In this document: piece after piece, positions 21,010 through 36,999 of the stretch
How the letters are laid out: each line of letters opens with the position of its first letter
How positions within the stretch are numbered: position 1 is the stretch's first letter
DNA from: an uncultured Acidimicrobiia bacterium
Lineage (GTDB): Bacteria > Acidobacteriota > Terriglobia > Versatilivoradales > Versatilivoraceae
Assembly (NCBI GenBank): GCA_963786955.1
Contig: CAWBAT010000004.1
Span: 96,001 to 160,000 of the forward strand
Direction of reading: 5' to 3'
DNA: 64,000 bases
Notes under the pieces: model-generated
What the model was told of the DNA's origin: nothing
Database searches by the model: none
What the model saw: the letters and a program-made list of their open reading frames with translations, nothing else
Translations under genes and position numbers: made by a program

Positions 21010-21087
21010 TTGCTCAGTGCGGATATTATAGTGCCGTGTCCGGAAGATTTCCCTCATCTGGTCAAGGAGCTTGGGTTTTTGATCTAT
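21010..21087 (-). pseudogene. intI: N-terminal stump of an integron integrase
   Basis: Minus strand reads (ATA)DQKPKLLDQMREIFRTRHYNIRTEQ, matching the IntI N-terminal pattern KPKLLDQVR..IR.RHYS.RTE; divergent from the cassette array; similarity stops abruptly. Confidence 0.85.
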
Positions 21088-21237
21088 GGTTGCGCAAATA
21101 GACAGAATTTTGAGGATGGGAATAGGAAGAATTTTTTCTATCTATTACAATGTGCTGAAAATAGCAATATCTTTTTGATATTTTTTGACTTAAGAAAGGG
21201 TTTGACTCATACTTCAGAGGGCAAATAAACAGAAAAC

Positions 21238-21284
21238 TTGCCAATATTGCAGAGTGCGATATTCTGCTTAATCATTAGTTAGAC
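21238..21284 (+). promoter_or_regulatory. Candidate attI site (crossover G/TTAGAC at 21278) with overlapping Pc-like promoter
   Basis: GTTAGACGG at 21278 has no upstream attC arm and is complementary to CCGTCTAAC at the end of cassette 1; TTGCCA-16-TATTCT at 21238-21265; second candidate TTGACT-17-CATACT at 21185-21213. Confidence 0.7.
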
Positions 21285-21295
21285 GGAGAGATGAT

Positions 21296-21844
21296 ATGGT
21301 GAGATGGACCGAGAATCGACCAGTTATTCTCACGTTTCTCGGTGCGTTGGGAGTCGGTGCATTTGGAGTTGCTTCTATCCATTCAGGTGTCCCATCACGT
21401 TTTTCGCCGTTGAGCGCATCGGTTACGATCGTCGCTATGCTTCTCACGGACTGGCTGACGACGCATATCACCTCAGGTCCGATGCACCATGTCATCTTGT
21501 AGTTCGTCGCAGTTATTCCTGTGACTTTGGCCTTTGTTGCGTGGTCGTATTTGCTGTTCAAGGGTCAGGAAGCCACACCTCGTCGCTCGTTGGTGCTCTT
21601 CATCATTCTTGCAGTTCTCTCGGCAATTGACCTCAGCTCAGGCTGGCACTACGGTTTGAAGTACCACGGCTTAGTACACACGATCATAGTGGTTGGATAT
21701 AACCTGCTGGCAATCGGATGCCTTATCTTGGTCTACCGCGCCAATCGGAGAGCGCCGCGATTCTCGTTGAACCTAGCCTTTCACGCCGGCCTTTTTTCGT
21801 GGCTCGCTTGGTGTGCTTTCCCCTGGCTCGGAGAATTACCTTGA
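21296..21844 (+). pseudogene. Cassette 1: multi-TM membrane protein interrupted by in-frame TAG at 21500-21502
   Basis: ORFs 21296-21502 and 21521-21844 share a frame and are hydrophobic throughout. Confidence 0.65.
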
Positions 21845-21848
21845 TTCC

Positions 21849-21916
21849 GTCTAACGCTGCATCCAGCCGACCCGCCGCCAAAAGCAGCGGCGGGCGGCTG
21901 ATGCCGAGCGTTAGGC
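21849..21916 (+). other. attC site 1 (68 bp)
   Basis: GTCTAAC...GTTAGGC with internal palindrome. Confidence 0.92.
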
Positions 21917-21945
21917 GGCTTAACAACCGGCGGCGGAGGTAGCAG

Positions 21946-22341
21946 ATGGGACCTGATGAACGAGAAATCCGCGAGGTTCATTCGACCTGGATCAATGCCG
22001 TCAATGCCGGCGATCTGGTCCGCTTGCTCACGTTGATGGCGGACGATGTCGTGTTCCTCAGTCCGGGCCAAGCGCCGTTCGGCCGGGATGGATTCTCCGC
22101 CAACTTCTCGGCCGCGCACCAACAGGTTCGGATCCGTTGCAGCAGCGAGTTGGAAGAGGTCGTAGTCATCGGCGAAGTCGCGTACACGCGGAGCCGGGAC
22201 GCGTTGTCGGTGACCCCGCGCGCAGGCGGGGAAGCGACGCAGCTCGCCGGTCATCGGATCACGGTATACCGCAAACAGCTCGACGGCCGCTGGCTCTTGG
22301 CCCGCGATGCCCATACTCTGTCCCCGGTTGAGAGAACCTGA
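21946..22341 (+). CDS. Cassette 2: SgcJ/EcaC-like (DUF4440, NTF2-like fold) protein
   Basis: DEREIR..W..AVNAGD..LMADDVVFL..G; YRKQ.DGRWLLARDA. Confidence 0.85.
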   Translation: MGPDEREIREVHSTWINAVNAGDLVRLLTLMADDVVFLSPGQAPFGRDGFSANFSAAHQQVRIRCSSELEEVVVIGEVAYTRSRDALSVTPRAGGEATQLAGHRITVYRKQLDGRWLLARDAHTLSPVERT

Positions 22342-22383
22342 TGGCTCCATGTTCTACATGATACGGTGGAATGTTCCCATGCC

Positions 22384-22505
22384 GCCTAACGAAAGGGTGC
22401 AGCCTACCACGGCCAGCGGCTTCTTTCATAGGCATTGCCAAATTCAACAGCATTCTTTGTTTTAACTTTATTCTGGCCGTGGCGGCTAACCCCAAGCGGT
22501 TAGCC
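22384..22505 (+). other. attC site 2 (122 bp, long AT-rich loop)
   Basis: GCCGCCTAAC complementary to cassette start GTTAGGCGGC; ends GTTAGCC. Confidence 0.88.
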
Positions 22506-22597
22506 AGTCCTGGCTTGAAACGTCCGTTTATGATTCCGATCGACACCGCCATTCTCTGACGGGTATATAATGTCACTAGAGTTGGTTTATCGAAACA

Positions 22598-22807
22598 ATG
22601 GAGGGAGCACCAGTAATGACTTCTTTACATGAGCAGTTCGTGATTGACGCCAAGGGCAAGAAGACTGGAGTCATTTTGTCGCTCAGACGGTATCAGAAAT
22701 TGATGGAAGACTTGCATGACTTGGCAAGAGTTGCCGAGCGTCGATTCGAAGACCCGATTCCTTTGGAGGAGATGAAGCGACGGTTGACAAGAGATGGCAA
22801 CTCATAG
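22598..22807 (+). CDS. Cassette 3: putative antitoxin of a RelE/ParE-type TA pair
   Basis: Small ORF (QFVIDAKGKKTGVIL..YQKLMEDLHDL..AERR.E..I.LEEMKRRL) overlapping the toxin; TATAAT at 22566 suggests its own promoter. Confidence 0.75.
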   Translation: MEGAPVMTSLHEQFVIDAKGKKTGVILSLRRYQKLMEDLHDLARVAERRFEDPIPLEEMKRRLTRDGNS

Positions 22808-23059
22808 AGCCCTTCTGAAGCCATCTGTCGAGAAAGACCTGCGTCCATTGTCGAAATCGATGGTGGCGCGAATAATGAAGCGCATCGAAGCACTGGGTGA
22901 TGACCCGTTTCCAGACCAGTCAATCAAGTTGGCGGGGACGGAACAGTTATACCGGCTACGTATCGGAGATTATCGCGTTGTCTACGTGTTGACAAAGCAG
23001 CCATGCAGGTAATCGTTCACTACGTTCGGCATCGCCGAGAGGTCTATCGTAGAGTTTGA
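22794..23059 (+). pseudogene. Cassette 3: RelE/ParE-family toxin with 1-bp frameshift near 22986
   Basis: YRLRIGDYRVVY, then the canonical tail VDKAAMQVIVHYVRHRREVYRRV* continues in another frame. Confidence 0.8.
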
Positions 23060-23077
23060 AACCATGCCGCCCGACTT

Positions 23078-23146
23078 GGCTAACAAATCGCTGGAGCGGA
23101 TGCCCGCCAAAAGCGGCGGGCACCGCTCAGCTCTCGCTCGTTAGCC
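23078..23146 (+). other. attC site 3 (69 bp)
   Basis: GGCTAAC...GTTAGCC; CCCGCCAAAAGCGGCGGG core. Confidence 0.92.
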
Positions 23147-23166
23147 AGCCGACTTTTGATTCCGTC

Positions 23167-23721
23167 ATGAAGACACAACGCAAGATCATCGTCTACATCG
23201 CGACCAGCGCTGACGGGTACATTGCCAGGCCGGACGGGGACGTCGAATGGCTCAATCGGCGACCTCGCAACGTCGATTACGGCATGAAGGAGTTCTATCG
23301 GACCATCGACACAATCCTTTGGGGTCGCAAGACCTACGACTGGCTTCTGAATTACTACAAGGAGCGCGGCAAGACCAAAGGCCTCTTCGACACGAAACTT
23401 GCGAACTATGTGTTTTCGCGGAAGCCACCCAAACGCCCCGCTCCAGGCGTGCAATTCGTATCGGAGCCCGTGGAGGCGTTCGCGCAGCGTCTGCGGGCAA
23501 CTCCGGGCAAACAAATCTGGATGATGGGCGGCGCCGGCCTGATCGCCTCTTTCCTGGACGCTGGCGAGATCGACGAGTTCGACATCCATGTGATGCCGCT
23601 CTTCATCGGCGAAGGTATTCCGCTCGTGGCGCCGCGTCATCGGGATGTGCCGCTTCGCTTGCGCTCGTCCAAGAAGTACACGGACGGTGTCGTTCGACTG
23701 CGGTATGAAGTTGGGCGGTAA
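23167..23721 (+). CDS. Cassette 4: dihydrofolate reductase-like (RibD C-terminal) protein
   Basis: RKIIVYIATSADGYIA, GRKTYD, IWMMGGA.L, DEF.I..MP..IGEGIPL. Confidence 0.9.
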   Translation: MKTQRKIIVYIATSADGYIARPDGDVEWLNRRPRNVDYGMKEFYRTIDTILWGRKTYDWLLNYYKERGKTKGLFDTKLANYVFSRKPPKRPAPGVQFVSEPVEAFAQRLRATPGKQIWMMGGAGLIASFLDAGEIDEFDIHVMPLFIGEGIPLVAPRHRDVPLRLRSSKKYTDGVVRLRYEVGR

Positions 23722-23769
23722 CAGCATCGGCGTGAACGCCGCCAGAGTCGTCGAAAACCGCGACTGGCT

Positions 23770-23832
23770 GGCTAACCCGCGTTTACATCCGACCGCCAAA
23801 AAGCGCGGCGGGTGAAGCGCAATTCGTTAGCC
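23770..23832 (+). other. attC site 4 (63 bp)
   Basis: GGCTGGCTAAC complementary to GTTAGCCAGCC; ends GTTAGCC. Confidence 0.92.
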
Positions 23833-23856
23833 GCCTAAGAAAGGTCAGGTGCTCGG

Positions 23857-24450
23857 GTGGACGTGGTTGACTGGCGACCGGAACTCATGAACGCAACGAT
23901 CAACGTCTTGTCGCGTGCGTTTGCCAAGAATCCAATTCATCTTGCGGCCTTTGGAGCCGACTCCGTCGTTGAACGAAACCGGGTGTTCTTTCGGGTTGGA
24001 CTCGCGCTGTTTCGCGGCCGTCGGCTGGTTGCGATGGAAGGGCCGAAGGTGGTTGGCTTCATGCACTGGGTCGAATCCCCGGGATGCCAGTTCTCTCTAG
24101 GGCAGAAAGTCCGTTTTGTTCCATCAATGCTTCGTGGCTTCGGGCTCCGGTCTACGCTTCGCGTCAGTTCGTGGCTCGCGGCGTGGGCTCAGAACGATGC
24201 CGCCGGTCTTCATTGGCACTTTGGACCAATCGGCGTTGATCCAGAGGTCCAGGGCAAGGGAGTTGGTCGACTTCTAATGACCATCTATTGCTCGGCGCTC
24301 GACGGACAGTTGGCATCTGGATTTCTCGAGACAGACAAGGCTGAGAACGTGGCTTTCTACAGGAGATTCGGCTTTGAAGTCGTCAAAGAGGTTCAGGTCA
24401 TCGGGACGACGACGTTCTTCATGGCCCGAAGTAGCACATGGCGCAGCTGA
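23857..24450 (+). CDS. Cassette 5: GNAT N-acetyltransferase
   Basis: IGVDPEVQGKGVG acetyl-CoA motif, LET...N..FY.RFGF. Confidence 0.88.
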   Translation: MDVVDWRPELMNATINVLSRAFAKNPIHLAAFGADSVVERNRVFFRVGLALFRGRRLVAMEGPKVVGFMHWVESPGCQFSLGQKVRFVPSMLRGFGLRSTLRVSSWLAAWAQNDAAGLHWHFGPIGVDPEVQGKGVGRLLMTIYCSALDGQLASGFLETDKAENVAFYRRFGFEVVKEVQVIGTTTFFMARSSTWRS

Positions 24451-24467
24451 ACGCCGGTACGTTGGGT
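24441..24467 (+). other. attC remnant (right half only)
   Basis: GCAGCTGAACGCCGGTAC-GTTGGGT; no R'' found upstream; GTTGGGTC matches the next attC's GACCCAAC. Confidence 0.65.
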
Positions 24468-24487
24468 CAAAGAAAGGAGAAGAAAAA

Positions 24488-24910
24488 ATGTTTCGCAAGG
24501 TCGCATGTCTACTCGCTCTGAGCCTCATCCTTGCTGCCGTCACTGGCGTGGCAGACGACTCGGATAAGGAGAAAGCCGCGGTGGCCGCAGCGGAGAAATG
24601 GCTCGGCCTCGTTGACGAAGGCAAATACGGCGAGAGCTGGAAGGAGGCAGCAGGCTTTTTCCGAAATGCCGTCAAACAGGAGCAGTGGGAACAGTCGTTG
24701 CAGGCCGTGAGGAAGCCTCTTGGCAAGCCGATTTCCAGACAGGTGAAGACCAAGACCTACAAGACATCATTGCCTGGTGCTCCCGATGGCGAATACGTCG
24801 TGATCCAGTTCGGGACCTCGTTTGAAAACAAGAAATCGGCGATCGAAACGGTCACTCCCATGATGGGCAAGGACGGAACGTGGAGAGTTTCCGGTTACTA
24901 CATCAAATGA
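24488..24910 (+). CDS. Cassette 6: secreted DUF4019-like protein
   Basis: Signal peptide; WL.LVD.G.Y.ESW, LPGAPDGEYVVIQF.TSF.NK, WRVSGYYIK. Confidence 0.85.
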   Translation: MFRKVACLLALSLILAAVTGVADDSDKEKAAVAAAEKWLGLVDEGKYGESWKEAAGFFRNAVKQEQWEQSLQAVRKPLGKPISRQVKTKTYKTSLPGAPDGEYVVIQFGTSFENKKSAIETVTPMMGKDGTWRVSGYYIK

Positions 24911-24912
24911 GG

Positions 24913-24971
24913 ACCCAACACGCAGGTCGAGGCGACGCGGAAGACCACGCGCCTCACCTGCCAGGTTAGGT
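24913..24971 (+). other. attC site (59 bp)
   Basis: ACCCAAC...GTTAGGT. Confidence 0.9.
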
Positions 24972-24998
24972 TCCACAATTCCACCTCAATTTGACACC

Positions 24999-25382
24999 AT
25001 GCCTACTCTTCAAATCACCGAGCCCGCGCTTCTCATACGGATTGCAAAGCTGTACAAACCCGGCATGAACGCCACTCAGCTTTGGGAGGCAACTCGTGGT
25101 GTCTGGAAGACTGGAATCGATCGGGAGAAGGCTGAATACGTATTGTCGGTCGCTAATGGCGTAGTACAGGAGGTCTACAAGATTGGCGCCTGGCAACCGG
25201 CGGGCACTGCAAGTTACACTACACGCGCAAGAAGCGAAGTGCAAATTGCAGGACGATGGGAGTTCACTGGAAGCGTCGCACATAGGACAGTACGAGACAA
25301 GTACATCGGGAAATCGATTGCGCACTACTTCAAACGTGGAAACGCAAATCCAGTCAACTACGTAAACATCAGGAACAAATGA
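24999..25382 (+). CDS. Cassette 7: hypothetical protein resembling the C-terminal domain of LEM-3-like GIY-YIG proteins
   Basis: LYKPGM...LWEATRGVW, V.NGVV.EVY.I..W, RWEF.G, YIGKS, G..NPV.Y; family similarity recalled, not searched. Confidence 0.6.
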   Translation: MPTLQITEPALLIRIAKLYKPGMNATQLWEATRGVWKTGIDREKAEYVLSVANGVVQEVYKIGAWQPAGTASYTTRARSEVQIAGRWEFTGSVAHRTVRDKYIGKSIAHYFKRGNANPVNYVNIRNK

Positions 25383-25451
25383 ACTGTGGCCCTGTGTGTT
25401 TCGCATAGTCAGCAAAGGCCAGAAAGTAATTTCTCAAGTCCTTGAGTTGGA

Positions 25452-25529
25452 ACCTAACCCGCCAATCAACCAAACCCGCAATAGCCGGCTTCGCCGGCCG
25501 TCGCGGGCCGGTAATTGGCAACGTTAGGC
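25452..25529 (+). other. attC site (78 bp)
   Basis: TGGAACCTAAC complementary to GTTAGGTTCCA; ends GTTAGGC. Confidence 0.92.
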
Positions 25530-25550
25530 GTCTAAAGGAAGGAGAGAGTC

Positions 25551-25967
25551 TTGATTGAAGCCCTCATTGGTGTGGCGGTAGGTGTTCTCACGATAGTCTT
25601 GGCACGGATCATCCGTGGGCAGCGTTGGTTGTATTCATTAGGCCTGCTCACTCTGCCTAGCTTGTACGCATCCTTTGCTCTATATGCCGGTGAGCAGGCT
25701 GTGGGCGTTAAGGAAATGATCTACGGTGTTCCGTTTGTCGTAGTTGGGCTGGTTTTCGCATCTGTGAGCGTCCGTCAGTCAGCCGTAGTGGTCGGTGCCT
25801 TCTGGATACTTCACGGGCTGTACGACTTGACGCATAGTCAGTTCATCACAAACGCTAGTGTTCCTGGTTGGTATCCCGTTTTTTGTTTCTCGGTTGATGT
25901 TGTTATCGGTGCATATCTACTATGGCTGTCGCGTCGTATCTCCAATGCAAATCTTCGCCAGGCGTAA
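25551..25967 (+). CDS. Cassette 8: small multi-TM membrane protein (DUF6010-like)
   Basis: W.LHG.YDL.H and VP.WYP.FC...D motifs; GGAG RBS. Confidence 0.75.
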   Translation: MIEALIGVAVGVLTIVLARIIRGQRWLYSLGLLTLPSLYASFALYAGEQAVGVKEMIYGVPFVVVGLVFASVSVRQSAVVVGAFWILHGLYDLTHSQFITNASVPGWYPVFCFSVDVVIGAYLLWLSRRISNANLRQA

Positions 25968-26025
25968 GTCGTGGCTTTGCCATTCTCGGAAGTGAGTTGG
26001 AGCAGTTCAGGTTCTTGAGGACGAC

Positions 26026-26098
26026 GCATAACCCTTCCATCAACCGGACAGTCACAAAGTTATGCTATTTTTACCGCCGGTTATGTCACACGTTAGAC
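26026..26098 (+). other. attC site (73 bp)
   Basis: GACGCATAAC...GTTAGAC. Confidence 0.88.
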
Positions 26099-26130
26099 CG
26101 CTGACGACGCTCACTGGAGCATTCTCTACC

Positions 26131-26835
26131 ATGACGACGCCGACAGCCGATAGCCAATCTCGATCACTACCGCATCATGTGGCCATCATCGGCGCCGCAG
26201 GTGGTCTCGGCCAGGGAATACTCGGCGTGTGCCGAGCAGCAGGAATGAGTTTCACTGCCATCGTCCGTTCTCGGCCGGAACGCATAACCGACGTGCCGGG
26301 CGGATCTCGCGTTGCTGTTGTCCAGTCTCTCGGCGATCGCCCCGCCCTCATGAAGGCATTCGCCGGTGCAGATGCCGTTCTCACCGCACTCGGAGTTACG
26401 GCAACGACCCATGAGCATTCCGCCTTGCTCTCAGCGAACATGGCCGCGGTTGAGGAGTCAATGTTGGCTGCAGGCGTCGACCGCATCGTCATGATCAACA
26501 CGTTGCTCACTTCACTACCAGGGCAACCTGCAAGCCGGCTCATGCGCTTCTTCATGTTGATGCCTGGGACAATGGGCCGCGGAGCTCGTGAACAGCAAGC
26601 GGTAATAGATGCGCTCGGTAACGGGGCGTTCTCATCGCTTCGCTGGACCCTCGTCCGCGGCGGCCTGAACTCTCGCGGCAAGGATGAGCGTCCCGTGGCT
26701 TCGGCGAACTGGAACGGCGCTCTAAACTCCTGGTCACCCGTTTCGTATGAGGCCATGGGCCGATGGATGCTTGAGGAGGCAGCGGCCAATGAGTTCGTCC
26801 GCGCAGCACCGCTGGTGTCACGGCGTCGCATGTGA
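26131..26835 (+). CDS. Cassette 9: NAD(P)H-binding Rossmann protein (BVR-B/NmrA-like)
   Basis: AIIGAAGGLG, AIVRSRPE, AFAGADAV, WTLVR. Confidence 0.82.
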   Translation: MTTPTADSQSRSLPHHVAIIGAAGGLGQGILGVCRAAGMSFTAIVRSRPERITDVPGGSRVAVVQSLGDRPALMKAFAGADAVLTALGVTATTHEHSALLSANMAAVEESMLAAGVDRIVMINTLLTSLPGQPASRLMRFFMLMPGTMGRGAREQQAVIDALGNGAFSSLRWTLVRGGLNSRGKDERPVASANWNGALNSWSPVSYEAMGRWMLEEAAANEFVRAAPLVSRRRM

Positions 26836-26851
26836 ACGTTGCCAACGAGCG

Positions 26852-26885
26852 GTCTAACAACGGCATGCAGCGGCCGGCGCTCGCA
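26852..26885 (+). other. attC left half, interrupted
   Basis: AGCGGTCTAAC complementary to GTTAGACCGCT, followed by AACGGCATGCAGCGG; no matching right arm. Confidence 0.7.
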
Positions 26886-27067
26886 CCGTCGAGAGCATTC
26901 TCCGAACAAGGCGGATAGACTTTGGGTCAAGCGTTGAGCTTCGAATAGAAGGGGGCGCGCCGTTACGCACTCCAAGAGAGATTTGCATGTGCGTCACCAA
27001 GAAGAACGTCACGATCAACACAGTGCATGGCGAGCCGCGCGTCAGAACGCAACGGAGGTCCCACCAA

Positions 27068-28261
27068 ATGGAACGAATGGCAGCAGTTCTCACGTTGTTG
27101 TGCAGTGCGATCGTGTCCACCGCCCATGCGCAGACGGGCTGGCTTCCACGCACGGTCGAGATGGGCCCGTATCTCACCGGCGAGAACCGGGCGGCCGCGC
27201 TCGCGCGGCTTCAGAGCATCGAGCGGCTGCTCAAGCAGGTACCGGAGCTCGCGCACCCCGATGGCTTCGAGGTCACGCCGTTCTTCGGGGGTGCCGGCAA
27301 AAGTCGGGAGGGGTTGGGCCACTCTGAGCACGCCGATTATGTCATCCCGTACCAATACCGGCTTTCGTTCTTCTACCCGAGCTTTGCAGCGAACAAGGCA
27401 GCGTTCAAGCCCGCGAGCGGTCAAATCATTTTCGCGGTCAACAGCGACGAGAACATGCATGGCGAGCTCGACCCGCAGGGCCGAGTAATATTCGTCGAGC
27501 AGCAGGGGCGTTGGCCACGCACACCCTTCTCGATCGTGACCTACGGCACGTCCGCGAGCGGCCACCTGCAACCCAACGAAGACTTCTCGCTCTGGACCTG
27601 GTTTACGCCAGGTGCCGAGTTCCCGTGGCACGCCGTGTCACGCGAGGACTATTACAACTATTTGATCGCCAGCGCCGAGGGGAACAATGGCGAGCGGCGC
27701 GCGCAGTACCAGAAGGTGCTTGAAAAGACCCCGTACGAGCGTTGGCTGGAAGAGGCGCCGCGGCGGAAGAAGGAGCGCGAAGAAACGTTGAAGGTACTCG
27801 CGCAAGTCCAGCCTGCCGCCGAAGTCGCCAAGCTGCGCAAGGCGATGGAGGATGCCGAGCGCGACGCCGGAGAACAGTTCAAGAAGAACGAAAACGAAGA
27901 CCGCGCAAGCGCCAGGACGGCGTTCAGGTCCACCGACGACATGCGCGCCGAGCTGAATCGCATGACGCCGGCGGAGCGAAAGCTGCCGGCAATCCTAGAT
28001 ACCGATCCTGCCCGGACCGAATGGCGCGTCACCGGAGCGAGCATACGCGACCGCGATACCGTCACAAACACGGTGAGCCGGGTCCTGACGCCGAACTACG
28101 ACTTCTGGCGCGCACGGAAATCGCTGGTCGAAGTGCGCACGATTAACGTGTATCTGGAAGGTTCGCCCGACCCGCCGGTACTCAACGCGATCTATCAGAT
28201 GTACCAGAAGTTCGATTGGCGCGCGCTCGCGGCGCTCATCGATCAGCCAACCAGAGAATAA
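27068..28261 (+). CDS. Secreted hypothetical protein with coiled-coil region
   Basis: Signal peptide (..STAHAQ), long GC-rich ORF; no attC after it. Confidence 0.7.
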   Translation: MERMAAVLTLLCSAIVSTAHAQTGWLPRTVEMGPYLTGENRAAALARLQSIERLLKQVPELAHPDGFEVTPFFGGAGKSREGLGHSEHADYVIPYQYRLSFFYPSFAANKAAFKPASGQIIFAVNSDENMHGELDPQGRVIFVEQQGRWPRTPFSIVTYGTSASGHLQPNEDFSLWTWFTPGAEFPWHAVSREDYYNYLIASAEGNNGERRAQYQKVLEKTPYERWLEEAPRRKKEREETLKVLAQVQPAAEVAKLRKAMEDAERDAGEQFKKNENEDRASARTAFRSTDDMRAELNRMTPAERKLPAILDTDPARTEWRVTGASIRDRDTVTNTVSRVLTPNYDFWRARKSLVEVRTINVYLEGSPDPPVLNAIYQMYQKFDWRALAALIDQPTRE

Positions 28262-30087: not shown

Positions 30088-30109
30088 AACCTGCGGCGAC
30101 GAACGGAGG

Positions 30110-30232
30110 GAAGTAGCTGATTTACTTGAAGATTTTTGCAGGAAGGGACAGAATTATGACCTTAAAGGGCACTTTTAGGGCCCGAAAACGTACCTTCGAG
30201 ATACCGAAGCCCTTTTGGATATTGCTTGCAAA
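30110..30232 (+). repeat. Dispersed 123-bp repeat, copy 1
   Basis: Colinear with 39983-40106 (GAAGTAGCTGATT..TTATG.CCTTAA..GGCCCGAAAAC.TACCTTC.AGA..CTTTTGG). Confidence 0.75.
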
Positions 30233-30264
30233 TGGTGATGATCTACAATCTCAATCAATCGAAA

Positions 30265-30327
30265 GCCTAACCCGCGCTTCCCCCCGACCGCCAAAAAGCG
30301 CGGCGGGCAAAGCGCAATTCGTTGGGC
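30265..30327 (+). other. attC site (63 bp), near-copy of attC 4
   Basis: GCCTAACCCGCG..CCGACCGCCAAAAAGCGCGGCGGG..AAGCGCAATTC-GTTGGGC. Confidence 0.9.
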
Positions 30328-30369
30328 GAGTATATAACTCATTAGAGGTGATGGGTCTTGAAACGTTCA

Positions 30370-30988
30370 ATGCGAATCATACTTGCAGCAGCTTTCATAA
30401 TCATTGGAGCGATGGATGCCATGGCGATCGAAGAGGCTACGTACAAGGTGGTGAAAAAGGACGACAAGTTCGAGATCCGCGATTATGCCCCCCACATCGC
30501 TCGCCGAAACCGTCGTGGAAGGAGATCTTGAAGAGGCTGGAAACAAGGCATTCAACAGGCTCTTTCGCTACATCTCCGGCGACAACCGGTCGCGCAACAA
30601 AGTGGCGATGACGGCCCCCGTATCCCAAGAGCCAACGGGGGAGAAGATCAAGATGACGGCGCCCGTAGGACAGCAGCGTGTCCAGGAAAGGTGGGCTGTC
30701 AGTTTCATGATGCCAGCCTCGTACACTCTGGAAACCCTTCCAGAGCCGGAGGACCCACAGGTCACGTTGCGTCAGGTGCCAGCGCGTCGGATGGCCGCGG
30801 TGCGCTACTCCGGTTTCTGGAGCGAAAAGAACTACCTTCGATACAGGATGGAGTTGGAGTCGTGGATTCATGAAAGGGGCCTTACCATTGTGGGCGATCC
30901 CGTATGGGCCCGCTACAATCCTCCCTTTACCCCGTGGTTTTTTCGGCGGAACGAGATTCTGATCCCGGTAGATGAAGGCGCTGACTAA
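30370..30988 (+). pseudogene. Cassette: SOUL heme-binding family protein with +1 frameshift near 30499
   Basis: MRIILAA..AIEEATYKVVKKDDKFEIRDYAPHI / LAETVV..AFNRLFRYISG..MTAPV..ARYNPPFTPWF.RRNE. Confidence 0.82.
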
Positions 30989-30994
30989 GAGAGA

Positions 30995-31065
30995 GCCCAA
31001 CAACCGCATCGAGCACTACGTCGTGCCCGCGACGGGCCCGACAAGGCTCATGCGTGACGTTGGGC
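30995..31065 (+). other. attC site (71 bp)
   Basis: GCCCAAC...GTTGGGC. Confidence 0.88.
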
Positions 31066-31097
31066 GTTACCGGTGCTAGACCTCAAACGGTGATCGA

Positions 31098-31634
31098 ATG
31101 AATACTTACATAGCCCTTTTCCGAGGTATCAACGTTGGTGGCAATAACTCTTTGCCGATGAAAAAACTTGTTACCATTCTGGAAGGCATTGGCGCACGAA
31201 AGGTCAAAACATATATTCAAAGCGGCAATGCTGTATTCCAGAGCGCAGAAAAGAACCCTTTACAACTCTCCAAACATCTAGCCGCTGAAATCAAGAAGCG
31301 CCATGGTTTCGAACCCTACATCCTCATTCTCGGACTCGAAGCAATAGAGAAAGCAATTGCGGAAAACCCTTTTCCAGAAGCTGAAACTGACCCCAGCAGT
31401 TTGCATCTTGGCTTTCTCGGCTCCAGCCCCAAGAGCCCTGATCTAGAGAAACTCTTCAGCCTGAAGAAGGAGAGCGAACGGTTTCATCTGAGCGATGGCG
31501 TGTTTTATCTACATGCGCCTGAAGGAGTGGGTAGATCAAAGCTCGCAGCAAGTACCGAGAAACTATTGGGTGTGCCGATGACAGATCGCAATTGGAGAAC
31601 TGTTTGTAAAGTCATGGAAATGGTGAGAAAGTGA
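31098..31634 (+). CDS. Cassette: DUF1697 family protein
   Basis: YIALFRGINVGG, V.TYIQSGN.VF, T.RNWRTV. Confidence 0.9.
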   Translation: MNTYIALFRGINVGGNNSLPMKKLVTILEGIGARKVKTYIQSGNAVFQSAEKNPLQLSKHLAAEIKKRHGFEPYILILGLEAIEKAIAENPFPEAETDPSSLHLGFLGSSPKSPDLEKLFSLKKESERFHLSDGVFYLHAPEGVGRSKLAASTEKLLGVPMTDRNWRTVCKVMEMVRK

Positions 31635-31642
31635 ATGGTTAC

Positions 31643-31724
31643 GCCCAACCCATCATTCCACCGGACCGGCCACAAGCGGCGCGTCGCACCGGTCGCGTCC
31701 GTCCGGTGAATTCAAACCTTCGGC
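31643..31724 (+). other. attC site (82 bp) with mutated R' (CTTCGGC)
   Basis: GCCCAAC..TTCCACCGGAC..GTCCGGTGAA; invariant GTT reads CTT. Confidence 0.8.
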
Positions 31725-31749
31725 GTCTTACCCTAAGAGGACAGTACCC

Positions 31750-32310
31750 TTGAATCACGTGACCCAAGAAGTGCTCGCCGCTGGCCTGGCCTCGATCCGG
31801 GAGTCGCCCAAAGACGAGGGAGTGCTCAACCTCATCGTGCGACGACCGGCGGTCGAAGCCCGCGAGGTACTCCAACTCGGACAGCTGGATCTAGTGACTG
31901 GCCTCGTCGGCGACACGTGGTGCACGCGGGGAAGCTCCCGTACCAATGATGGCACCCCCCATCCGGACATGCAGCTGAACCTGATGAACAGCCGCGTCAT
32001 TGCCTTGTTGGCCAGTCATTTAGAGCAGTGGCCCCTGGCGGGCGATCAACTCTATGTCGACCTGGATCTGAGCGTAGCCAACTTGCCAGCGTGGACGCAA
32101 TTAGAGATCGGGACGGCTGTTATCGCTGTAACGGACCAACCGCACACCGGCTGCAAGAAGTTTGCCGCGCGGTTCGGCCTCGACGCACTGGCGTTCATAT
32201 CGTCACCCGAAGGTCGATCCTTGAACCTGCGGGGAATCAATGCACGCGTGGTCCGCCCGGGGGTTGTCCGTGTGGGCGATGTCGTGCGCAAGATTGGCAG
32301 AGCTGATTAA
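31750..32310 (+). CDS. Cassette: MOSC domain protein
   Basis: GL.GD, LAGDQLYVD, PHTGC.KF..RFG, RGINARV. Confidence 0.85.
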   Translation: MNHVTQEVLAAGLASIRESPKDEGVLNLIVRRPAVEAREVLQLGQLDLVTGLVGDTWCTRGSSRTNDGTPHPDMQLNLMNSRVIALLASHLEQWPLAGDQLYVDLDLSVANLPAWTQLEIGTAVIAVTDQPHTGCKKFAARFGLDALAFISSPEGRSLNLRGINARVVRPGVVRVGDVVRKIGRAD

Positions 32311-32333
32311 TGGCTGGGGCTAATTACAGCGAC

Positions 32334-32396
32334 GCCGTACCACCCGTTGCAGACGACGCGTAAGAAACAGGGCACGCCTGACCTGGAACGATCGGC
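32334..32396 (+). other. Degenerate attC (63 bp)
   Basis: GACGCCGTAC...GATCGGC; both core sites one base off; resembles the attC at 24913. Confidence 0.6.
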
Positions 32397-32478
32397 GTAC
32401 GACCTAGCGGCGCGAGCCTCATCGAAGCTTGTGCTTACAACTTACACCGGAGTATTCCGCAGCAAACGGATTGCAGCT

Positions 32479-33021
32479 ATGAGATTCACTCGCAGAGACG
32501 CGGTCATCCAGGATTTGCCGCAGATTGTCGAGATCTACAACCTCGCGGTCGTGACTCGCGAAAGCAGTTGTGATCTCGATCCGATAACCGTAGCCGCACG
32601 CGAGCACTGGTTCGTGACGCATAGCGGTAGTCGTCGCCCGATATGGGTCGCGGAGGATCGCGATGCCCCCGGCCGCGGAGTTGTTGGGTACTTGGGGTTC
32701 TTTTACTTCATGAACGAGCGCCCGGGCTATTACATCACGTCAGATTTGGCGATCTATCTGCATCCTGACTATCAAGGGAAGCGCCTCGGTACGTACCTGC
32801 TACGAGAGGCCATCCGGGAAGCGCCGGCGCTCGGTATTGAAGTGCTTGCCGTGACGATATTTGCATCGAACCAGCCCAGTCTTCGCCTTTTCGAGCATCA
32901 CGGATTTGAGCGTTGGGGGTTTATGCCCCGTGTCGCGCGGCTTGGAGACATCGAACGCGACCTTGTGATGATGGGGCGAAGATTGGCCCCTCAACCGGTT
33001 GCAGCGGACCATGATGGATGA
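32479..33021 (+). CDS. Cassette: GNAT acetyltransferase (YncA/phosphinothricin acetyltransferase-like)
   Basis: DLPQIVEIYN, IYLHPDYQGKRLG, N.PSL.LF...GF..WG. Confidence 0.87.
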   Translation: MRFTRRDAVIQDLPQIVEIYNLAVVTRESSCDLDPITVAAREHWFVTHSGSRRPIWVAEDRDAPGRGVVGYLGFFYFMNERPGYYITSDLAIYLHPDYQGKRLGTYLLREAIREAPALGIEVLAVTIFASNQPSLRLFEHHGFERWGFMPRVARLGDIERDLVMMGRRLAPQPVAADHDG

Positions 33022-33072
33022 CGTGCCAAGGCACATGCGGCAGTGCACGGCCGTTCGACCGGAGCGTTAGAC
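32986..33072 (+). other. attC with degenerate R'' (gene reads into it)
   Basis: AACCGGTTGCAGCGGACC...GGCCGTTCGACCGGAGC-GTTAGAC. Confidence 0.65.
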
Positions 33073-33097
33073 GGAATCAATACCGAAGGAGCAAATC

Positions 33098-33466
33098 ATG
33101 ATCGAACACACCCTCGACACTGCGCAGTCCATTTTGTACGTGCGACCAAAGTCCGCTCTCGAGCAAGGCGACTTTGTGGAACTCGCGAAATCGGTCGACC
33201 CACACATTCGAGAGACCGGAGATCTCGCGGGTCTAATCATCGAAGCCCCTACATTCCCCGGATGGGAAGGCCTCGGAGCCATGGCGGCCCACTTCCGTTT
33301 CGTGCGAGATCACCAGAAGCACATCAAGAAGATTGCCCTCGTAACCGATTCCGCCCTGGGAAATGTCGCCGAGCATTTGGCGTCACACTTTGTGTCTGCC
33401 GAGATCAGACATTTCTCTGCGGGGGAACTTGAGGCTGCAAAACAATGGGTCATGAAGCGCCCGTGA
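33098..33466 (+). CDS. Cassette: SpoIIAA-like (STAS/SEC14) protein
   Basis: FPGWE...A...H..FVRDH...IKKIALV.D, IRHF...E...A..W. Confidence 0.85.
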   Translation: MIEHTLDTAQSILYVRPKSALEQGDFVELAKSVDPHIRETGDLAGLIIEAPTFPGWEGLGAMAAHFRFVRDHQKHIKKIALVTDSALGNVAEHLASHFVSAEIRHFSAGELEAAKQWVMKRP

Positions 33467-33469
33467 CTC

Positions 33470-33490
33470 GTATAACATGGCGCTCCACCC
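33470..33490 (+). other. attC left-half remnant
   Basis: CGTATAACATGGCGCTCCACCC directly after the stop; right arm missing. Confidence 0.5.
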
Positions 33491-33962
33491 ATTAAGCAAT
33501 AACTTAGCTACAGAGAGAATGGCCTCCTTTGACCCGATGGAAGCTTTTTATTGTCTGCATAATTTCCGCTCAACCCTTCGGTTGTGCTACTCTCGATCCA
33601 AAGACGGTGTGCGTCGAAGGGACCTACTCCTAAGTTCGTTGGAAACCCGTTTACTGGGTACAGCCTTTTATCGAAACCAAGAGGTGTTGGCCCATGTTCC
33701 ACCTGGCCGGTACATTCTCATAAGATCGGGAAAGAATGTGGAAGCAATTCGTTTCTTCGACATACAGGCTGCACTAAGTGAAGGGGACATGTGTGGTTGT
33801 GCAAGCTATGATGTTTATGAAGTACAGGCGGCAAGAGCCACGACACAGACGGCGGCGCCAAAACATAGAGGGCAAGTTTCAGAATTTAATCTCAGAGGTT
33901 TTCATCCCTTTGCATACCAGCCTGGGCACACCAAACTTGAAGGTACATTGAGCGGGGCTTAA
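33477..33962 (+). CDS. Hypothetical, possibly 5'-truncated cassette ORF
   Basis: Open frame ending 12 bp before an attC-like remnant; no family recognised. Confidence 0.35.
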   Translation: MALHPLSNNLATERMASFDPMEAFYCLHNFRSTLRLCYSRSKDGVRRRDLLLSSLETRLLGTAFYRNQEVLAHVPPGRYILIRSGKNVEAIRFFDIQAALSEGDMCGCASYDVYEVQAARATTQTAAPKHRGQVSEFNLRGFHPFAYQPGHTKLEGTLSGA

Positions 33963-33974
33963 TACGAATATCCA

Positions 33975-33993
33975 ACCCAACTTGTCGTTGGGA
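33975..33993 (+). other. Collapsed attC (R''-5 bp-R')
   Basis: ACCCAAC-TTGTC-GTTGGGA. Confidence 0.5.
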
Positions 33994-34239
33994 AGGAGAG
34001 TGAACTCGCAATAACAGCATGGACTTCGATTGACCACGTCGATCCGACGCACCCGAAGCTGAAGTGGTTTAGTTACCGGGATGGAACTCTGAACCGGCAC
34101 ACCTTTAACTTCTCATTAACTGATTTACCTTGAGTCCCTTGTTTTACGCGAAAGGAATCGCGATGGTACCGTTTGAGCGGCGGTGGACGCCATGAATTTT
34201 TACCCTAGGCTGTCAGGAACGAAATAGGAGACAGCGACA

Positions 34240-34644
34240 ATGCCTTCCAATTTGGATGATTTTGCGAAACGTTATGCCAAAGCCTGGTGCAGCCAGAGTC
34301 CGGAAAGCGTCACTTCGTTCTTCGCGGAAAACGGTTCGCTCAGCGTTAACGATGCGGCTCCTGCCGTGGGAAGAGCAGCCATCACCGAGGTGGCAAAGGG
34401 TTTCATGACGGCTTTTCCGGATCTGGTCGTGACAATGGATCACTTGATCGAGAAACCACAAGCAGTCGAGTTTCATTGGACGCTAACAGGGACAAACTCC
34501 GGGCCGGGTGGAACCGGCAAACGGGTCCGAATCAGCGGATTCGAGGAATGGCAGATCGACGCGGGCGGTCTCGTCGCCAAGTCTAGGGGCTATTTCGACG
34601 CCGATGAATACGAGAGCCAGCGTGAGCACGGAGTGGTCTGCTAG
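34240..34644 (+). CDS. SnoaL-like/ester cyclase family protein
   Basis: AFPDL.V.MD, HWTLTGTN.GPGGTGKRVRISG.E.W. Confidence 0.85.
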   Translation: MPSNLDDFAKRYAKAWCSQSPESVTSFFAENGSLSVNDAAPAVGRAAITEVAKGFMTAFPDLVVTMDHLIEKPQAVEFHWTLTGTNSGPGGTGKRVRISGFEEWQIDAGGLVAKSRGYFDADEYESQREHGVVC

Positions 34645-34775
34645 CCAAGGGTTGCCAGTTCCCCAATCTACCTTGAGGCCTTCCGGGTTGAAACAGCTTT
34701 TCGAATCCGTTGTTCCTCGGAAGGCGCCGTGCCGTTGAATCTCCGATTGATTATTGAAACCAGAAAGGAGCAAAC

Positions 34776-35276
34776 ATGAACAGGTTCTTTAGGTATAAGA
34801 GTCTGCAGAGTCTGAGGTCTATTCTCACCGCGGGTGGCGCGATCGTGTTACTTTTCTCAGCTTCTTACGTACTGGCAGCCGACCCCGACGCGATGGCGAA
34901 GGCGTTGACGCGCCTTGATGACGACTGGTCGAAGGCTGCGGTGGCGAAGGACGTGGACCGCGTGGCGTCGTTCTACGCTGAGAATGCGATTGCATATCCA
35001 CCGAATGAGCCCATGGCTATCGGGCGAACCGCTGCGAAGAAGGTTTGGGCATCGTATTTCGCCGACCCGACCTTCTCAATCTCCTGGAAGACAGTCCACG
35101 CGGGAGTGTCGACGAGCGGCGATCTCGGCTTCACAGCCGGCACCTACGAAGACTCGTTCAAGGGACCCGACGGTAAGCTTGTCAAAGAGAAGGGAAAGTA
35201 CTTGTGCACCTGGAGGAAGGAGAAGGACGGGACCTGGAAGGCTATCCACGACATCTGGAACCTGGATTCCAAGTAG
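34776..35276 (+). CDS. Secreted DUF4440/YybH-family protein
   Basis: Signal peptide; SGDLGFTAGTY, GKYLC.WRK..DGTWK. Confidence 0.85.
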   Translation: MNRFFRYKSLQSLRSILTAGGAIVLLFSASYVLAADPDAMAKALTRLDDDWSKAAVAKDVDRVASFYAENAIAYPPNEPMAIGRTAAKKVWASYFADPTFSISWKTVHAGVSTSGDLGFTAGTYEDSFKGPDGKLVKEKGKYLCTWRKEKDGTWKAIHDIWNLDSK

Positions 35277-35338
35277 CAGCGTCACTATCCCGCATCGGTC
35301 GGCCCGCATTGCGCCCGGCAAGGCAAAGGTGTGCGTCG

Positions 35339-35398
35339 GCATAACCTTCGCCAGCAACTGACGGCCTTCAGCCGCGGTTCAAGCGCAATCCTTCAGGC
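35339..35398 (+). other. Degenerate attC
   Basis: GCATAAC...AAGCGCAATC-CTTCAGGC (R' decayed). Confidence 0.5.
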
Positions 35399-35443
35399 GC
35401 CGTGGAATCGAGTCAGGCTGGCAATGACCATTGGAGATAAGAG

Positions 35444-36214
35444 ATGACAAGCATGAGCGGCAAAGTTGCTCTGGTTACTGGAGCAAGCAGTGGAATCGGG
35501 CGAGCAACGGCCGTAGCCTTCGCAGCGATGGGAGCCAAGGTTTCACTCGCTGCGCGGCGGGTGGACGAGTTGGTTGAACTCGTTTGCGAGATCGAGGCGC
35601 GGGGAGGCACGCCAACCTTCGTAAAGACGGATGTTTCCGTTGCAAAGGACGTGGAACAGATGGTCAAACACACGATTGAAACCTTTGGGCGCCTCGACTA
35701 CGCTGTGAACAACGCTGGCATCGAGGGGCAGTTCTCTGGAATCACGGATTTGCCCGAGGAAGAGTGGGACCGAGTTCTCGACATCAACCTGAAAGGAACC
35801 TTTCTCTGCATGAAGTACGAGGCTAGAGCGATGCTTGCGGGCGGCCATGGCGGCGCGATCGTCAACATTGGCTCCGTAAACTCTTTCCTCGGCTTCCCTA
35901 CCGGCTCAGCGTATGTCGCCTCAAAGCATGGGCTGATCGGGCTGACGACGAGTGTCTCCGCGGAGCTGGCGCCGCAGGGAATCAGGGTCAATCTTGTGTG
36001 TCCGGGAGTCATCGATACGCCGATGCATCGCCGGCTGCGCGGGTTAATCGGTGACGAGATCTACGACGAAGTCCTGAAACAACGCGTTCATACGCGACGA
36101 GCGGGTCGCCCGGAGGAGATCGCCCAGTCCATTGTATTCCTGTGCTCGGACGAGGCCAGCTACATCACCGGCACAACACTGACGCCGGATGGCGGCTTCA
36201 CTTTGACGATATGA
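35444..36214 (+). CDS. SDR family oxidoreductase
   Basis: TGASSGIG, NNAG, YVASKHG motifs. Confidence 0.93.
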   Translation: MTSMSGKVALVTGASSGIGRATAVAFAAMGAKVSLAARRVDELVELVCEIEARGGTPTFVKTDVSVAKDVEQMVKHTIETFGRLDYAVNNAGIEGQFSGITDLPEEEWDRVLDINLKGTFLCMKYEARAMLAGGHGGAIVNIGSVNSFLGFPTGSAYVASKHGLIGLTTSVSAELAPQGIRVNLVCPGVIDTPMHRRLRGLIGDEIYDEVLKQRVHTRRAGRPEEIAQSIVFLCSDEASYITGTTLTPDGGFTLTI

Positions 36215-36231
36215 CTTCACGCACTGTCGCC

Positions 36232-36263
36232 GCATAACCTGCCGCTAAGCGCGAGCGTTAGCC
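36232..36263 (+). other. Internally deleted attC (32 bp)
   Basis: GCATAAC-CTGCCGCTAAGCGCGAGC-GTTAGCC. Confidence 0.6.
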
Positions 36264-36374
36264 CGTTCTTGGAAGGACCGCCCATGTTACACTTGAGGAC
36301 GTCACTCGCAGAGCGCCCCTCAGTTTTGGAACGGAAACTGACGCGTCAAGCGTTGACTCACAAAGGAGAGACCG

Positions 36375-36899
36375 ATGCCGATCACGGCTTTCAACAGTTT
36401 TACCGATGGCCTCGATCCGAATCGCCGAAGCCGCGAGCACTTCGTGACCACCATCGATATAGCAGACGATCGTCGCTGGGTGCCCTATGCCGATGGTGTC
36501 TGGTTACAGCCCTGCCATTTTAACGTCACGTCGGGGGGATTCAGTGTTATTTTAAAAGGTCTCCCCGGCAGCATGCTGGGCACGCACTACCACGTTGGCA
36601 CGGTGCGTGGTTATACGATGTGTGGGCACTGGCGCTACCTCGAGCACGACTGGGTCGCAAAGCCTGGGACCTTCATCTATGAACCCGCCGGAGAAGCTCA
36701 TACGCTGGTTATCATGGAGGATTCACCAGAACCGGCGTTGATCCTGTTTGTCGTTGAGGGTGGCCTCATATATTTAGACCAACCCGTCAACGGTGGCGTT
36801 GCTGCCTACGAGGATGGATTCACCCTTCTCGAACTGACTCGGAAGTACTATCGCGAAGCAGGTCTCGATGCGCGCCAGCTGGACCAGCTCATTCGTTAG
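36375..36899 (+). CDS. Cupin, 2,4'-dihydroxyacetophenone dioxygenase/ChrR-like
   Basis: HYH.G.V..YT..G.W.YLEHDW.A..G.FIYEP.GE.HTL. Confidence 0.85.
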   Translation: MPITAFNSFTDGLDPNRRSREHFVTTIDIADDRRWVPYADGVWLQPCHFNVTSGGFSVILKGLPGSMLGTHYHVGTVRGYTMCGHWRYLEHDWVAKPGTFIYEPAGEAHTLVIMEDSPEPALILFVVEGGLIYLDQPVNGGVAAYEDGFTLLELTRKYYREAGLDARQLDQLIR

Positions 36900-36924
36900 T
36901 TGAAGCGCCCGGCCTGAGAGAGGC

Positions 36925-36999
36925 GTCCAGAAAGCTGCCTCCAGCGAATACTCCTTCGTCGCTTCCGCTTCCCGCAGCCGCTGACGCCCAGTGTTAACT
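36925..36999 (+). other. Highly degenerate attC
   Basis: CTCCAGCG...GCAGCCGCTGACGCCCAGT-GTTAACT; R'' not recognisable. Confidence 0.4.

Follow-up and report, generated by a model that had tools for sequence, protein, structure and literature searches.

A cassette array beside gltX in a probable Acidobacteriota genome is most plausibly a sedentary chromosomal integron that lost its integrase

The stretch of DNA analyzed here (the window) comprises 64,000 nucleotides (nt) of contig CAWBAT010000004.1 in assembly GCA_963786955.1 and carries, beside the glutamyl-tRNA synthetase gene gltX, an array of integron cassettes of about 16 kb that is headed by a 26-codon stump of an integron integrase gene (intI). 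In the codes used below it is G000:C4:96001-160000, where G000 is the source genome (5.65 Mb in 9 contigs, 93% complete), C4 is the contig bearing the window, and G001 and G002 are congeners. In arrays of the Vibrio type, the integrase is intact and under SOS control, and the attC sites are highly homogeneous. Toxin-antitoxin cassettes are reported from these sedentary chromosomal integrons as well (Sci Adv 2024, PMC13108822). In the ilvD integrons of Xanthomonas, studied by Gillings and colleagues and summarized in bioRxiv 10.1101/2025.06.18.660453 and PMC8618304, intI has been inactivated by stops, frameshifts, or large deletions. Loss of intI is also one of the origins proposed for attC site clusters that have no integron integrase (CALINs), and the survey that describes them found a recognizable intI pseudogene, detected through its C-terminal domain, near 15 of 279 CALINs (Cury et al. 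2016, PMC4889954). Since integrons are listed for Acidobacteriota and an Acidobacteria-specific attC model has been built, at least according to the published summaries, the view in the sequence-based note that preceded this work (the original prediction) that integrons of this phylum are poorly characterized was overstated.

The gltX locus shares features with each of these systems. Like the Xanthomonas integrons, as the above summaries present them, it appears to occupy a fixed core-gene position in related species (G000 and G002), has an inactivated intI, differs between lineages in its array (the arrays are thought to have been frozen after the loss), and is accompanied by additional attC clusters elsewhere in the genome; flanking-gene and intI phylogenies are incongruent there too, suggesting recombination. 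Unlike them, it belongs to the Acidobacteriota (class Terriglobia, as far as can be judged), is anchored at gltX, retains only 26 codons of intI, has four paralogous truncated platforms in the genome rather than one, and faces a congener platform at the same locus that comes from another IntI lineage. Its cassettes, like those of the CALINs described in PMC4889954, are mostly of unknown function and include no resistance genes, whereas the remnant found here, an N-terminus plus attI, would be missed by the C-terminal test as that source describes it. A large chromosomal array of promoterless cassettes, whose functions are again mostly unknown and among which there is a type II toxin-antitoxin cassette, is common to it and the Vibrio type, to the extent covered in PMC13108822; unlike that type, it no longer has its integrase, and the lengths of its attC sites range from 59 to 122 nt. 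We consider it highly probable that the locus is a sedentary chromosomal integron that lost its integrase, its platform stemming from a family of paralogs and its array being older than the split from the congener.

The window's platform, i.e., the stump together with a promoter-like site and an attI-like block, is designated A, and it and its immediate flanks are arranged as follows.

19186..20685, minus strand: gltX, glutamyl-tRNA synthetase (Pfam tRNA-synt_1c, 2e-98, and Anticodon_2)
20794..20863, no strand assigned: repetitive extragenic palindromic (REP)-like repeat between gltX and the stump (blastn copies on contigs C2, C5, C6, C8, and C9; motif present 17 times in the genome)
21010..21087, minus strand: intI stump of 26 codons with its start mutated to ATA, broken after ...IRTEQ (translation, tblastn, NCBIfam)
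21185..21213, plus strand: promoter-like site facing the array, candidate cassette promoter Pc (TTGACT, 17 nt, CATACT; consensus scan)
21237..21284, plus strand: attI-like block that has the core GTTAGAC (21278-21284) at its end; conservation within the platform peaks here (90% among 5 copies and 80% among 9)
37011..38555, plus strand: amidase on the right flank (Pfam Amidase), syntenic in G002

The stump peptide, read from 21087 to 21010 on the minus strand, is IDQKPKLLDQMREIFRTRHYNIRTEQ, after which unrelated sequence and a stop codon follow. In an IntI query of this region, a check that the original prediction had proposed, the full-length IntI of a family relative (an open reading frame [ORF] of 369 amino acids [aa], L020) matches it in tblastn with 47% identity over 32 aa (E = 5e-4). 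In NCBIfam, the 26 residues have as their sole match the integron integrase model NF011946 (E = 0.013), and none of the Xer models is matched at E <= 1. The strongest evidence is indirect and comes from a paralog, 87% identical to the stump stretch at the DNA level, which runs on for about 150 residues and scores 192 bits with TIGR02249 versus 51 with XerC and 45 with XerD. Judged from these scores, the N-terminus is closer to IntI than to XerC/XerD, and the result that the original prediction had itself named as fatal, a stump nearer to Xer, did not materialize. The paralogs read on past the stump breakpoint as ...TEQ(A/T)YVNW. Because two paralogs (C and D, see below) and a metagenomic copy (L130) carry ATG at the position of the first codon, the ATA noted at the outset is a mutated start codon in its proper place.

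Homology among copies A, C, D, and L130 ends immediately after GTTAG, where the crossover point of attI should lie; the conserved block closes with GTTAGAC just where the paralogs diverge. The promoter-like hexamer pair falls in a block that is 86% identical among the five close copies and 76% among nine, and it may act as Pc. From the GTTAGAC at 21278 to its end at 36999, the array is co-oriented on the plus strand and the stump is divergent from it, so the originally proposed intI-attI-attC layout is borne out by the stump, promoter-like site, attI-like block, and array. Counted over the window, GTTAGVC occurs 31 times against 10.5 +/- 3.8 expected, a number reached in 0 of 100 shuffles; the GC fraction per kb ranges from 0.49 to 0.63 over the array.

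An integron counts as complete if it has intI and one or more attC sites (Cury et al. 2016), and a full intI, with the catalytic C-terminal domain and the IntI-specific insertion, is absent from this locus. By the standard operational definition (at least two attC within 4 kb and no intI nearby), the locus is a CALIN: it has ten full plus-strand attC sites and no intI detectable by profile at the locus at E <= 0.001. A tool seeking the IntI C-terminal domain would report it as such, in line with the original prediction, and the pseudogene test, as outlined in the published account, uses C-terminal profiles only. On sequence evidence, the stump marks the presence of an integron platform at this site.

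We took as attC a pair of boxes, R'' (RYYYAAC) and R' (GTTRRRY), 50 to 150 nt apart and closing an imperfect hairpin with paired L boxes. Ten full sites of this kind were read and folded in the array (21849-21916, 22384-22505, 23078-23146, 23770-23832, 24913-24971, 25452-25529, 26026-26098, 26852-26939, 30265-30327, and 30995-31065); folds of 12 candidates gave both boxes, lengths of 59 to 122 nt, and paired inner (L) boxes in the full sites. To these are added about eight remnants (24446-24467, 28282, 31643, 33066, 33470, 35339, 36232-36263, and 36993-36999), a total of about 18, close to the 19 or so first announced. Canonical attC sites have extrahelical bases on one arm only, which gives strand selectivity. 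Single-base bulges near positions 16 and 22-23 are confined to the 5' arm (R''-L'') in 7/7 of the sites that pass a strict scan; with respect to the cassette ORFs, the bulged arm is the same one every time, and these one-sided bulges match the canonical extrahelical bases. The strict generic scan, which combined the box consensus, at least 3/4 complementary flanking bases, a single hairpin, and an energy of <= -0.20 kcal/mol per nt, recovered 35 sites in the 5.65-Mb genome, 7 of them inside 9.2 kb of the window array (a >100-fold enrichment). Others lie downstream of platforms B (1 site), C (2), and D (1) or near the end of contig C4 (3). The last three form a group of attC-like sites within 5 kb (G000:C4:897628-902405), 2 kb from the contig end and with no platform copy nearby, which may be another CALIN or else an array that was broken in assembly.

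When crossover occurs at G|TT, the R'' of a cassette becomes complementary to that cassette's own first bases. In 10 proximal cassettes, this signature is present at 69/70 core positions and at 30/60 positions beyond the core, where R'' boxes paired with the starts of other cassettes have a mean of 1.37/6; contiguous runs of 7 to 11 bases occur in 9/10 cassettes, and in permutations the total was reached by 0/20000 and the extension alone by 2/20000. The complementarity to the first 8 to 11 bases originally reported for the proximal cassettes is thus upheld. In the distal third (31.7-37.0 kb), no R'' pairs with its own cassette start over as many as 7 bases.

These observations bear on whether the sites might be generic palindromes separating ordinary genes, either terminators or REP elements, or whether misassembly among repeated platforms might have produced the truncation of intI. 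REP-like repeats and elements resembling miniature inverted-repeat transposable elements (MITEs) are indeed common in the genome and lie next to the breakpoints, and a loose energy-based scan gave 1569 hits genome-wide, one per 3.6 kb, and was discarded as uninformative. However, terminators and REP elements are not characterized by RYYYAAC/GTTRRRY boxes, by bulges on one arm, or by complementarity specific to each cassette, and the strict sites are concentrated in the array as described. The platform copies are only 81-87% identical, and for that reason are unlikely to have been collapsed or swapped in assembly; moreover, the independently assembled G002 shows the same kind of truncation. We therefore regard this explanation as exceedingly improbable. 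Among other procedures tried, initial simple scans and an inverted-repeat finder returned 5 sites only or mostly noise, MAFFT alignments of attC were structurally poor and were replaced by bootstrapped covariance models, and an Rfam scan of the window (4227 families, gathering threshold) found 5 tRNAs and no attC family.

The segment 21011-21283 is present four times in the genome by blastn, once in the window (A) and in three further platforms.

C4:290292-290559 (region 289913-290559; L001, L033): platform B, 87% identical to A, intI cut after about 150 codons
C5:573046-573316 (region 573020-573316; L035): platform C, 84% identical to A, intI cut after about 37 codons
C5:579224-579496 (region 579070-579496; L037): platform D, 81% identical to A, intI cut after 60 to 89 codons

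Platforms C and D are tandem neighbors separated by 6 kb, the GTTAG core is missing from B, and B, C, and D each have one or two attC within the next 6 kb. In the platform alignment, A is 82-86% identical to its three paralogs, and copies within the genome are 80-86% identical. The closest relative of A, at 89%, is L130, a metagenome contig of 1815 nt and the sole contig returned by a metagenome search for the platform family; its intI begins with ATG and is interrupted in frame by a stop at codon 58, 5 codons before the contig ends, and its GTTAG core is intact. Repeats of REP-like or MITE-like character occur near platform breakpoints. In both G000 and G002, the interval separating gltX from the stump contains short REP-like hairpins that abut the breakpoints (window 20794-20863 and 20960-20990; G002 gltX upstream, L043); the motif has 17 hits in the genome. 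A MITE-like element, about 290 nt long and bearing internal hairpins as well as terminal inverted repeats, is found at window 42065-42360 and at G000:C4 ~289500-289730, the latter copy lying left of platform B about 190 nt from the breakpoint of its truncated intI.

No full intI of the kind that the original prediction had proposed to look for was found elsewhere in the genome. TIGR02249 gave 10 genome matches at E <= 0.001, none over the cut-off: the best (190 bits; copy B) covers model positions 1-146 only, copy D covers positions 1-59 with a TGA, and the others are Xer-like or broken recombinases. With the IntI of eight relatives as queries, tblastn revealed no C-terminal IntI piece in the genome. 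TIGR02249 exceeds its cut-off in 9/41 genomes of the class, and 0 of those 9 belong to the source genus.

This bears on the idea that the array is still active in trans, served by an integrase located elsewhere (an unassembled contig, a plasmid, or a transient mobile integron), which we regard as unlikely though credible. It would account for several features: the attI and promoter block is better conserved than the dead stump and spacer, the ten proximal attC sites have kept their canonical form, almost every cassette differs between G000 and G002, a small 223-nt cassette with attC (30107-30328) recurs in array B with 86% identity, and the CALIN literature, in the parts bearing on mobility, regards such cassettes as mobilizable in trans. 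Against this, searches of G000 (E <= 0.001) and G002 (E <= 1e-20) brought up no intact intI, and intI is dead in all nine family copies seen (4 in G000, 4 in G002, and 1 on the metagenome contig). The conservation contrast consists of raw identities (among 5 copies, 90% for the attI-proximal 47 nt and 86% for the promoter block versus 84% for the stump and 78% for the spacer; among 9 copies, 80% and 76% versus 60% and 64%) and would fit attI and Pc still being in use, gene conversion being the alternative. Separately, Logan contigs from runs X3 and X4, which belong to different studies, join the end of the NmrA-like cassette (26876/26882) to 21890/21897 with 6 to 9 other letters between. The joint places the NmrA-like cassette before the attC that precedes the DUF4440 cassette, an order differing from that of the window, with one contig in each run and 92% likeness; it may stem from other organisms or from similar attC sites and, like the 223-nt cassette shared with array B, is a weak hint of cassette mobility. 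In public sequencing runs, at most 0.19 of the array's sampled words were present, and no conclusion on habitat or strain is drawn from them.

A further suggestion, which we hold to be rather doubtful, is that the stump-promoter-attI module is a unit maintained without an integrase, as a selected expression head or a landing pad for cassette arrays. If this were true, the modules would be serviced, if at all, by integrases visiting on mobile elements, and conversion would homogenize them inside a genome.

The reading that we prefer, an old integron at gltX that has lost its integrase, also draws on the congeners. The left flank of the array (EF-Tu [tuf], five tRNAs, an SpoU methylase, and gltX in Pfam and Rfam scans) places it at a core-genome locus, as originally stated. 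The gltX orthologs are 90% identical in G002 and 80% in G001. Homology between G002 and the window, by blastn, extends from gltX to 20905, resumes at 31719-32352 (MOSC) and 32994-33470 (SpoIIAA-like), and resumes again from 36967 into the amidase, which in G002 is 87% identical and lies directly 3' of that genome's own array (tblastn). The shared MOSC and SpoIIAA-like cassettes are 89-91% identical. Apart from these two distal cassettes, the 13.7-kb G002 array has nothing in common with the window genome: 20905-31719 is without a counterpart, and the last cassettes (33477-36999) are absent. The GNAT gene between the shared cassettes has been lost in G002 save its last 11 codons; since a 9-base direct repeat flanks the gap, this was a microhomology deletion. 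Because G002 shares both flanks and the two distal cassettes, the array appears to have been in place before the species split; on sequence evidence it is old and anchored at gltX.

The platform itself has a different affinity. At the gltX locus of G002, intI is likewise truncated but represents another lineage (61% identity over 64 aa with the L026 IntI), and the platform/attI region there is ~54% identical to A. G002 holds four further copies of the window's platform family, 69-81% identical to A, one of which (G002:C10) occupies the position orthologous to that of B, with the same TolC-like gene as its neighbor; B and G002:C10 are 77% identical, so copies within G000 (80-86%) are more alike than this orthologous pair. 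Since A is 82-86% identical to its paralogs versus ~54% to the G002 gltX platform, A was probably not the builder of the array. A was probably brought in or converted after the split from the congener and is most simply viewed as a member of a paralog family that was spread or homogenized in the lineage and that, along with the proximal 10 kb, took the place of whatever had been here earlier. In G001, no stump, strict attC, or amidase is present within 20 kb of gltX; with no integron there for comparison, the replacement may have happened in G000 or in G002. Among 80 gltX loci of the genome collection, only that of G002 has an IntI-type fragment beside it. The inspection of relatives that the original prediction had advised thus shows an array in G002 and none within 20 kb in G001. 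A sedentary chromosomal integron is recognized by occurrence at the same locus in related species or by >19 attC sites; here the array is at gltX in G002 though not within 20 kb of it in G001, and about 18 sites and remnants were counted.

These comparisons also weigh on a simpler history, in which the integron that built the array was always here and lost its own intI, save 26 codons, in a single local deletion. In its favor, stump, promoter, and attI are contiguous with the array, the G002 array occupies the same locus with shared distal cassettes, and G002 likewise has a truncated intI next to gltX. This history is nevertheless possible rather than likely: platform A is ~54% identical to the G002 gltX platform versus 82-86% to three paralogs and 89% to the metagenomic copy, the G002 stump matches a different IntI lineage, and homology ends at 20905, leaving 20905-31719 without a G002 counterpart. 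A shared ancestral truncation, suggested by similar peptide tails past both breakpoints, was rejected as unproven, both tails being located in a multicopy REP-like hairpin. The original prediction that the array arose in place and then lost its integrase is therefore sustained as regards the array, by the G002 flanks and the two distal cassettes, and not as regards the platform, which is nearer to its paralogs. It is very improbable that the CALIN formed with no integrase on site, whether cassettes were inserted off target or a rearrangement split the array from a distant integron. The literature, as far as its published outlines go, proposes both routes, and other integron platforms are on the same contig, but the 5' end of intI, the promoter region, and the attI-like site adjoin the first cassette in the canonical divergent layout.

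The cassettes of the array, all on the plus strand unless stated, are listed below in order.

21278..21916, plus strand: cassette 1, membrane-like ORF 21296-21844 with an in-frame TAG at 21500-21502 and no Pfam family; attC 21849-21916 (68 nt, plus strand, fold of -30.6 kcal/mol, passes the strict scan)
21910..22505, plus strand: cassette 2, DUF4440/SnoaL-like 21946-22341 (Pfam); attC 22384-22505 (122 nt; fold)
22499..23146, plus strand: cassette 3, toxin-antitoxin pair, Phd/YefM-like 22598-22807 (PhdYeFM, 23.3 bits, below the Pfam cut-off) and ParE 22794-23012 (ParE_toxin, 29.1 bits, over it); attC 23078-23146 (strict scan)
23140..23832, plus strand: cassette 4, RibD_C-domain protein 23167-23721 (Pfam); attC 23770-23832 (strict scan)
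23826..24467, plus strand: cassette 5, GNAT acetyltransferase 23857-24450 (Pfam); 22-nt attC remnant 24446-24467
24461..24971, plus strand: cassette 6, DUF4019 24488-24910 (Pfam); attC 24913-24971 (strict scan)
24965..25529, plus strand: cassette 7, ORF 24999-25382 without a family; attC 25452-25529; 11-base own-start complementarity
25523..26098, plus strand: cassette 8, DUF6010-like 25551-25967 (Pfam, below cut-off); attC 26026-26098 with a weak hairpin; R'' matches its own start at 9/10 bases
26092..26939, plus strand: cassette 9, NmrA-like NAD(P)-binding protein 26131-26835 (Pfam); attC 26852-26939 with a poor 3' half (fold); 11-base own-start complementarity
26933..30327, plus strand: poorly resolved stretch, with a 424-aa ORF 26987-28261, R''-like GCTCAAC at 28282, an OmpA-family gene 28412-29514 on the minus strand, an ORF 29803-30087, a 125-nt repeated element 30107-30232, and attC 30265-30327
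30321..31065, plus strand: SOUL haem-binding protein 30358-30988 (Pfam), frame broken near 30499 in a C run; attC 30995-31065 (strict scan)
31059..31726, plus strand: DUF1697 31098-31634; attC remnant from 31643 with R'' GCCCAAC intact and R' decayed
31727..33476, plus strand: distal cassettes, MOSC 31750-32310, GNAT 32479-33021, and SpoIIAA-like 33098-33466 (Pfam); remnants R' GTTAGAC at 33066 and R''-like GTATAAC at 33470
33477..36999, plus strand: last cassettes, ORF 33477-33962, SnoaL 34240-34644, DUF4440 34776-35276, SDR 35444-36214, and cupin 36375-36899; attC remnants at 35339 (R''-like box), 36232-36263 (32-nt mini-site), and 36993-36999 (terminal GTTAACT)

Several cassette ORFs have no Pfam family, and the gene content is typical of chromosomal integrons. 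The 125-nt element starts just after a stop codon and recurs at 39980-40106 and at G000:C4:295177-295300 (76-86% identity); two copies stand beside attC in arrays and the third outside the array, after an amino-acid permease gene, and the element may be a tiny cassette ORF or an RNA. Past the amidase and the permease, at 40386-43122, are four small co-oriented genes of cassette-like content (GNAT, DinB-like, MORN repeat, and dioxygenase), and no attC-like sites that would continue the array lie between them. As for the source, the closest gltX relatives are one labeled "Terriglobia" and one labeled "uncultured Acidimicrobiia", and the next relatives are all Acidobacteriota, so the name "Acidimicrobiia" looks mislabeled. 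Judged from these relatives, the genome is probably that of a member of the Acidobacteriota, as originally supposed.

Several points weigh against the history of integrase loss favored here. With the genome at 93% completeness (9 contigs), unassembled or unbinned DNA may harbor an intact intI. The promoter-like site is a consensus match only, 2 such sites being found versus 1.1 expected in shuffles. A home-made attC covariance model was built from 5 window sites and is circular for the window array: on the plus strand of the window at E <= 1e-5, it recovers only its 5 training sites, and attC sites that are clear by eye are at its noise level (30995-31065, 14.7 bits; 24913-24971, 10 bits). Its one nontraining match in the genome is in the array of platform B (46 bits, E = 2e-7), and a strict scan of about 70 kb beside the intact intI of five relatives gave 5 sites at 2/5 loci, too few for an independent model. 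The SOUL gene (at 30499) and the OmpA-family gene (at ~29260-29270) are each split into two ORFs at C homopolymers, and one metagenome contig is without one base at 30499; these frame breaks may be assembly indels rather than true pseudogenes. Finally, the polarity may be the opposite, the replacement having happened in G002 instead.

With these reservations, the present state of the locus may be pictured as follows. What survives between gltX and the amidase is a 26-codon intI with ATA in place of its start, an outward promoter-like site, an attI-like site, and about 20 promoterless cassettes. As it has no IntI, the locus should be unable to excise or capture cassettes by itself, and its likely present function would be plain expression of the promoter-proximal cassettes, while the ParE/Phd cassette may discourage deletions. 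The array would be slowly eroding, its proximal attC sites being canonical and its distal ones remnants. The platform is one of four stump-promoter-attI modules, each truncated at a different codon and each followed by attC sites, and was probably introduced or converted at this locus after the species split, the array itself predating that split.

Integrase loss in chromosomal integrons and the presence of integrons in Acidobacteriota are already known, and the integrase-free multicopy platform family is the only unusual aspect; for this family and for gltX-anchored integrons, no paper was found in literature searches that were aimed at other points. The known picture of integron biology is thus unchanged, and for the specialist the locus is a useful example in an undersampled phylum rather than a surprise. 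It offers a cleanly documented case of one of the origins proposed for CALINs, the loss of intI. Because an N-terminal stump with attI escapes the C-terminal profile test, some "orphan" attC clusters may be beheaded integrons misfiled by the tools. Comparison with the congener suggests distal cassettes older than the species split and a platform and proximal cassettes that were exchanged, and the fourfold integrase-free platform family raises the question of whether selection keeps attI and Pc.

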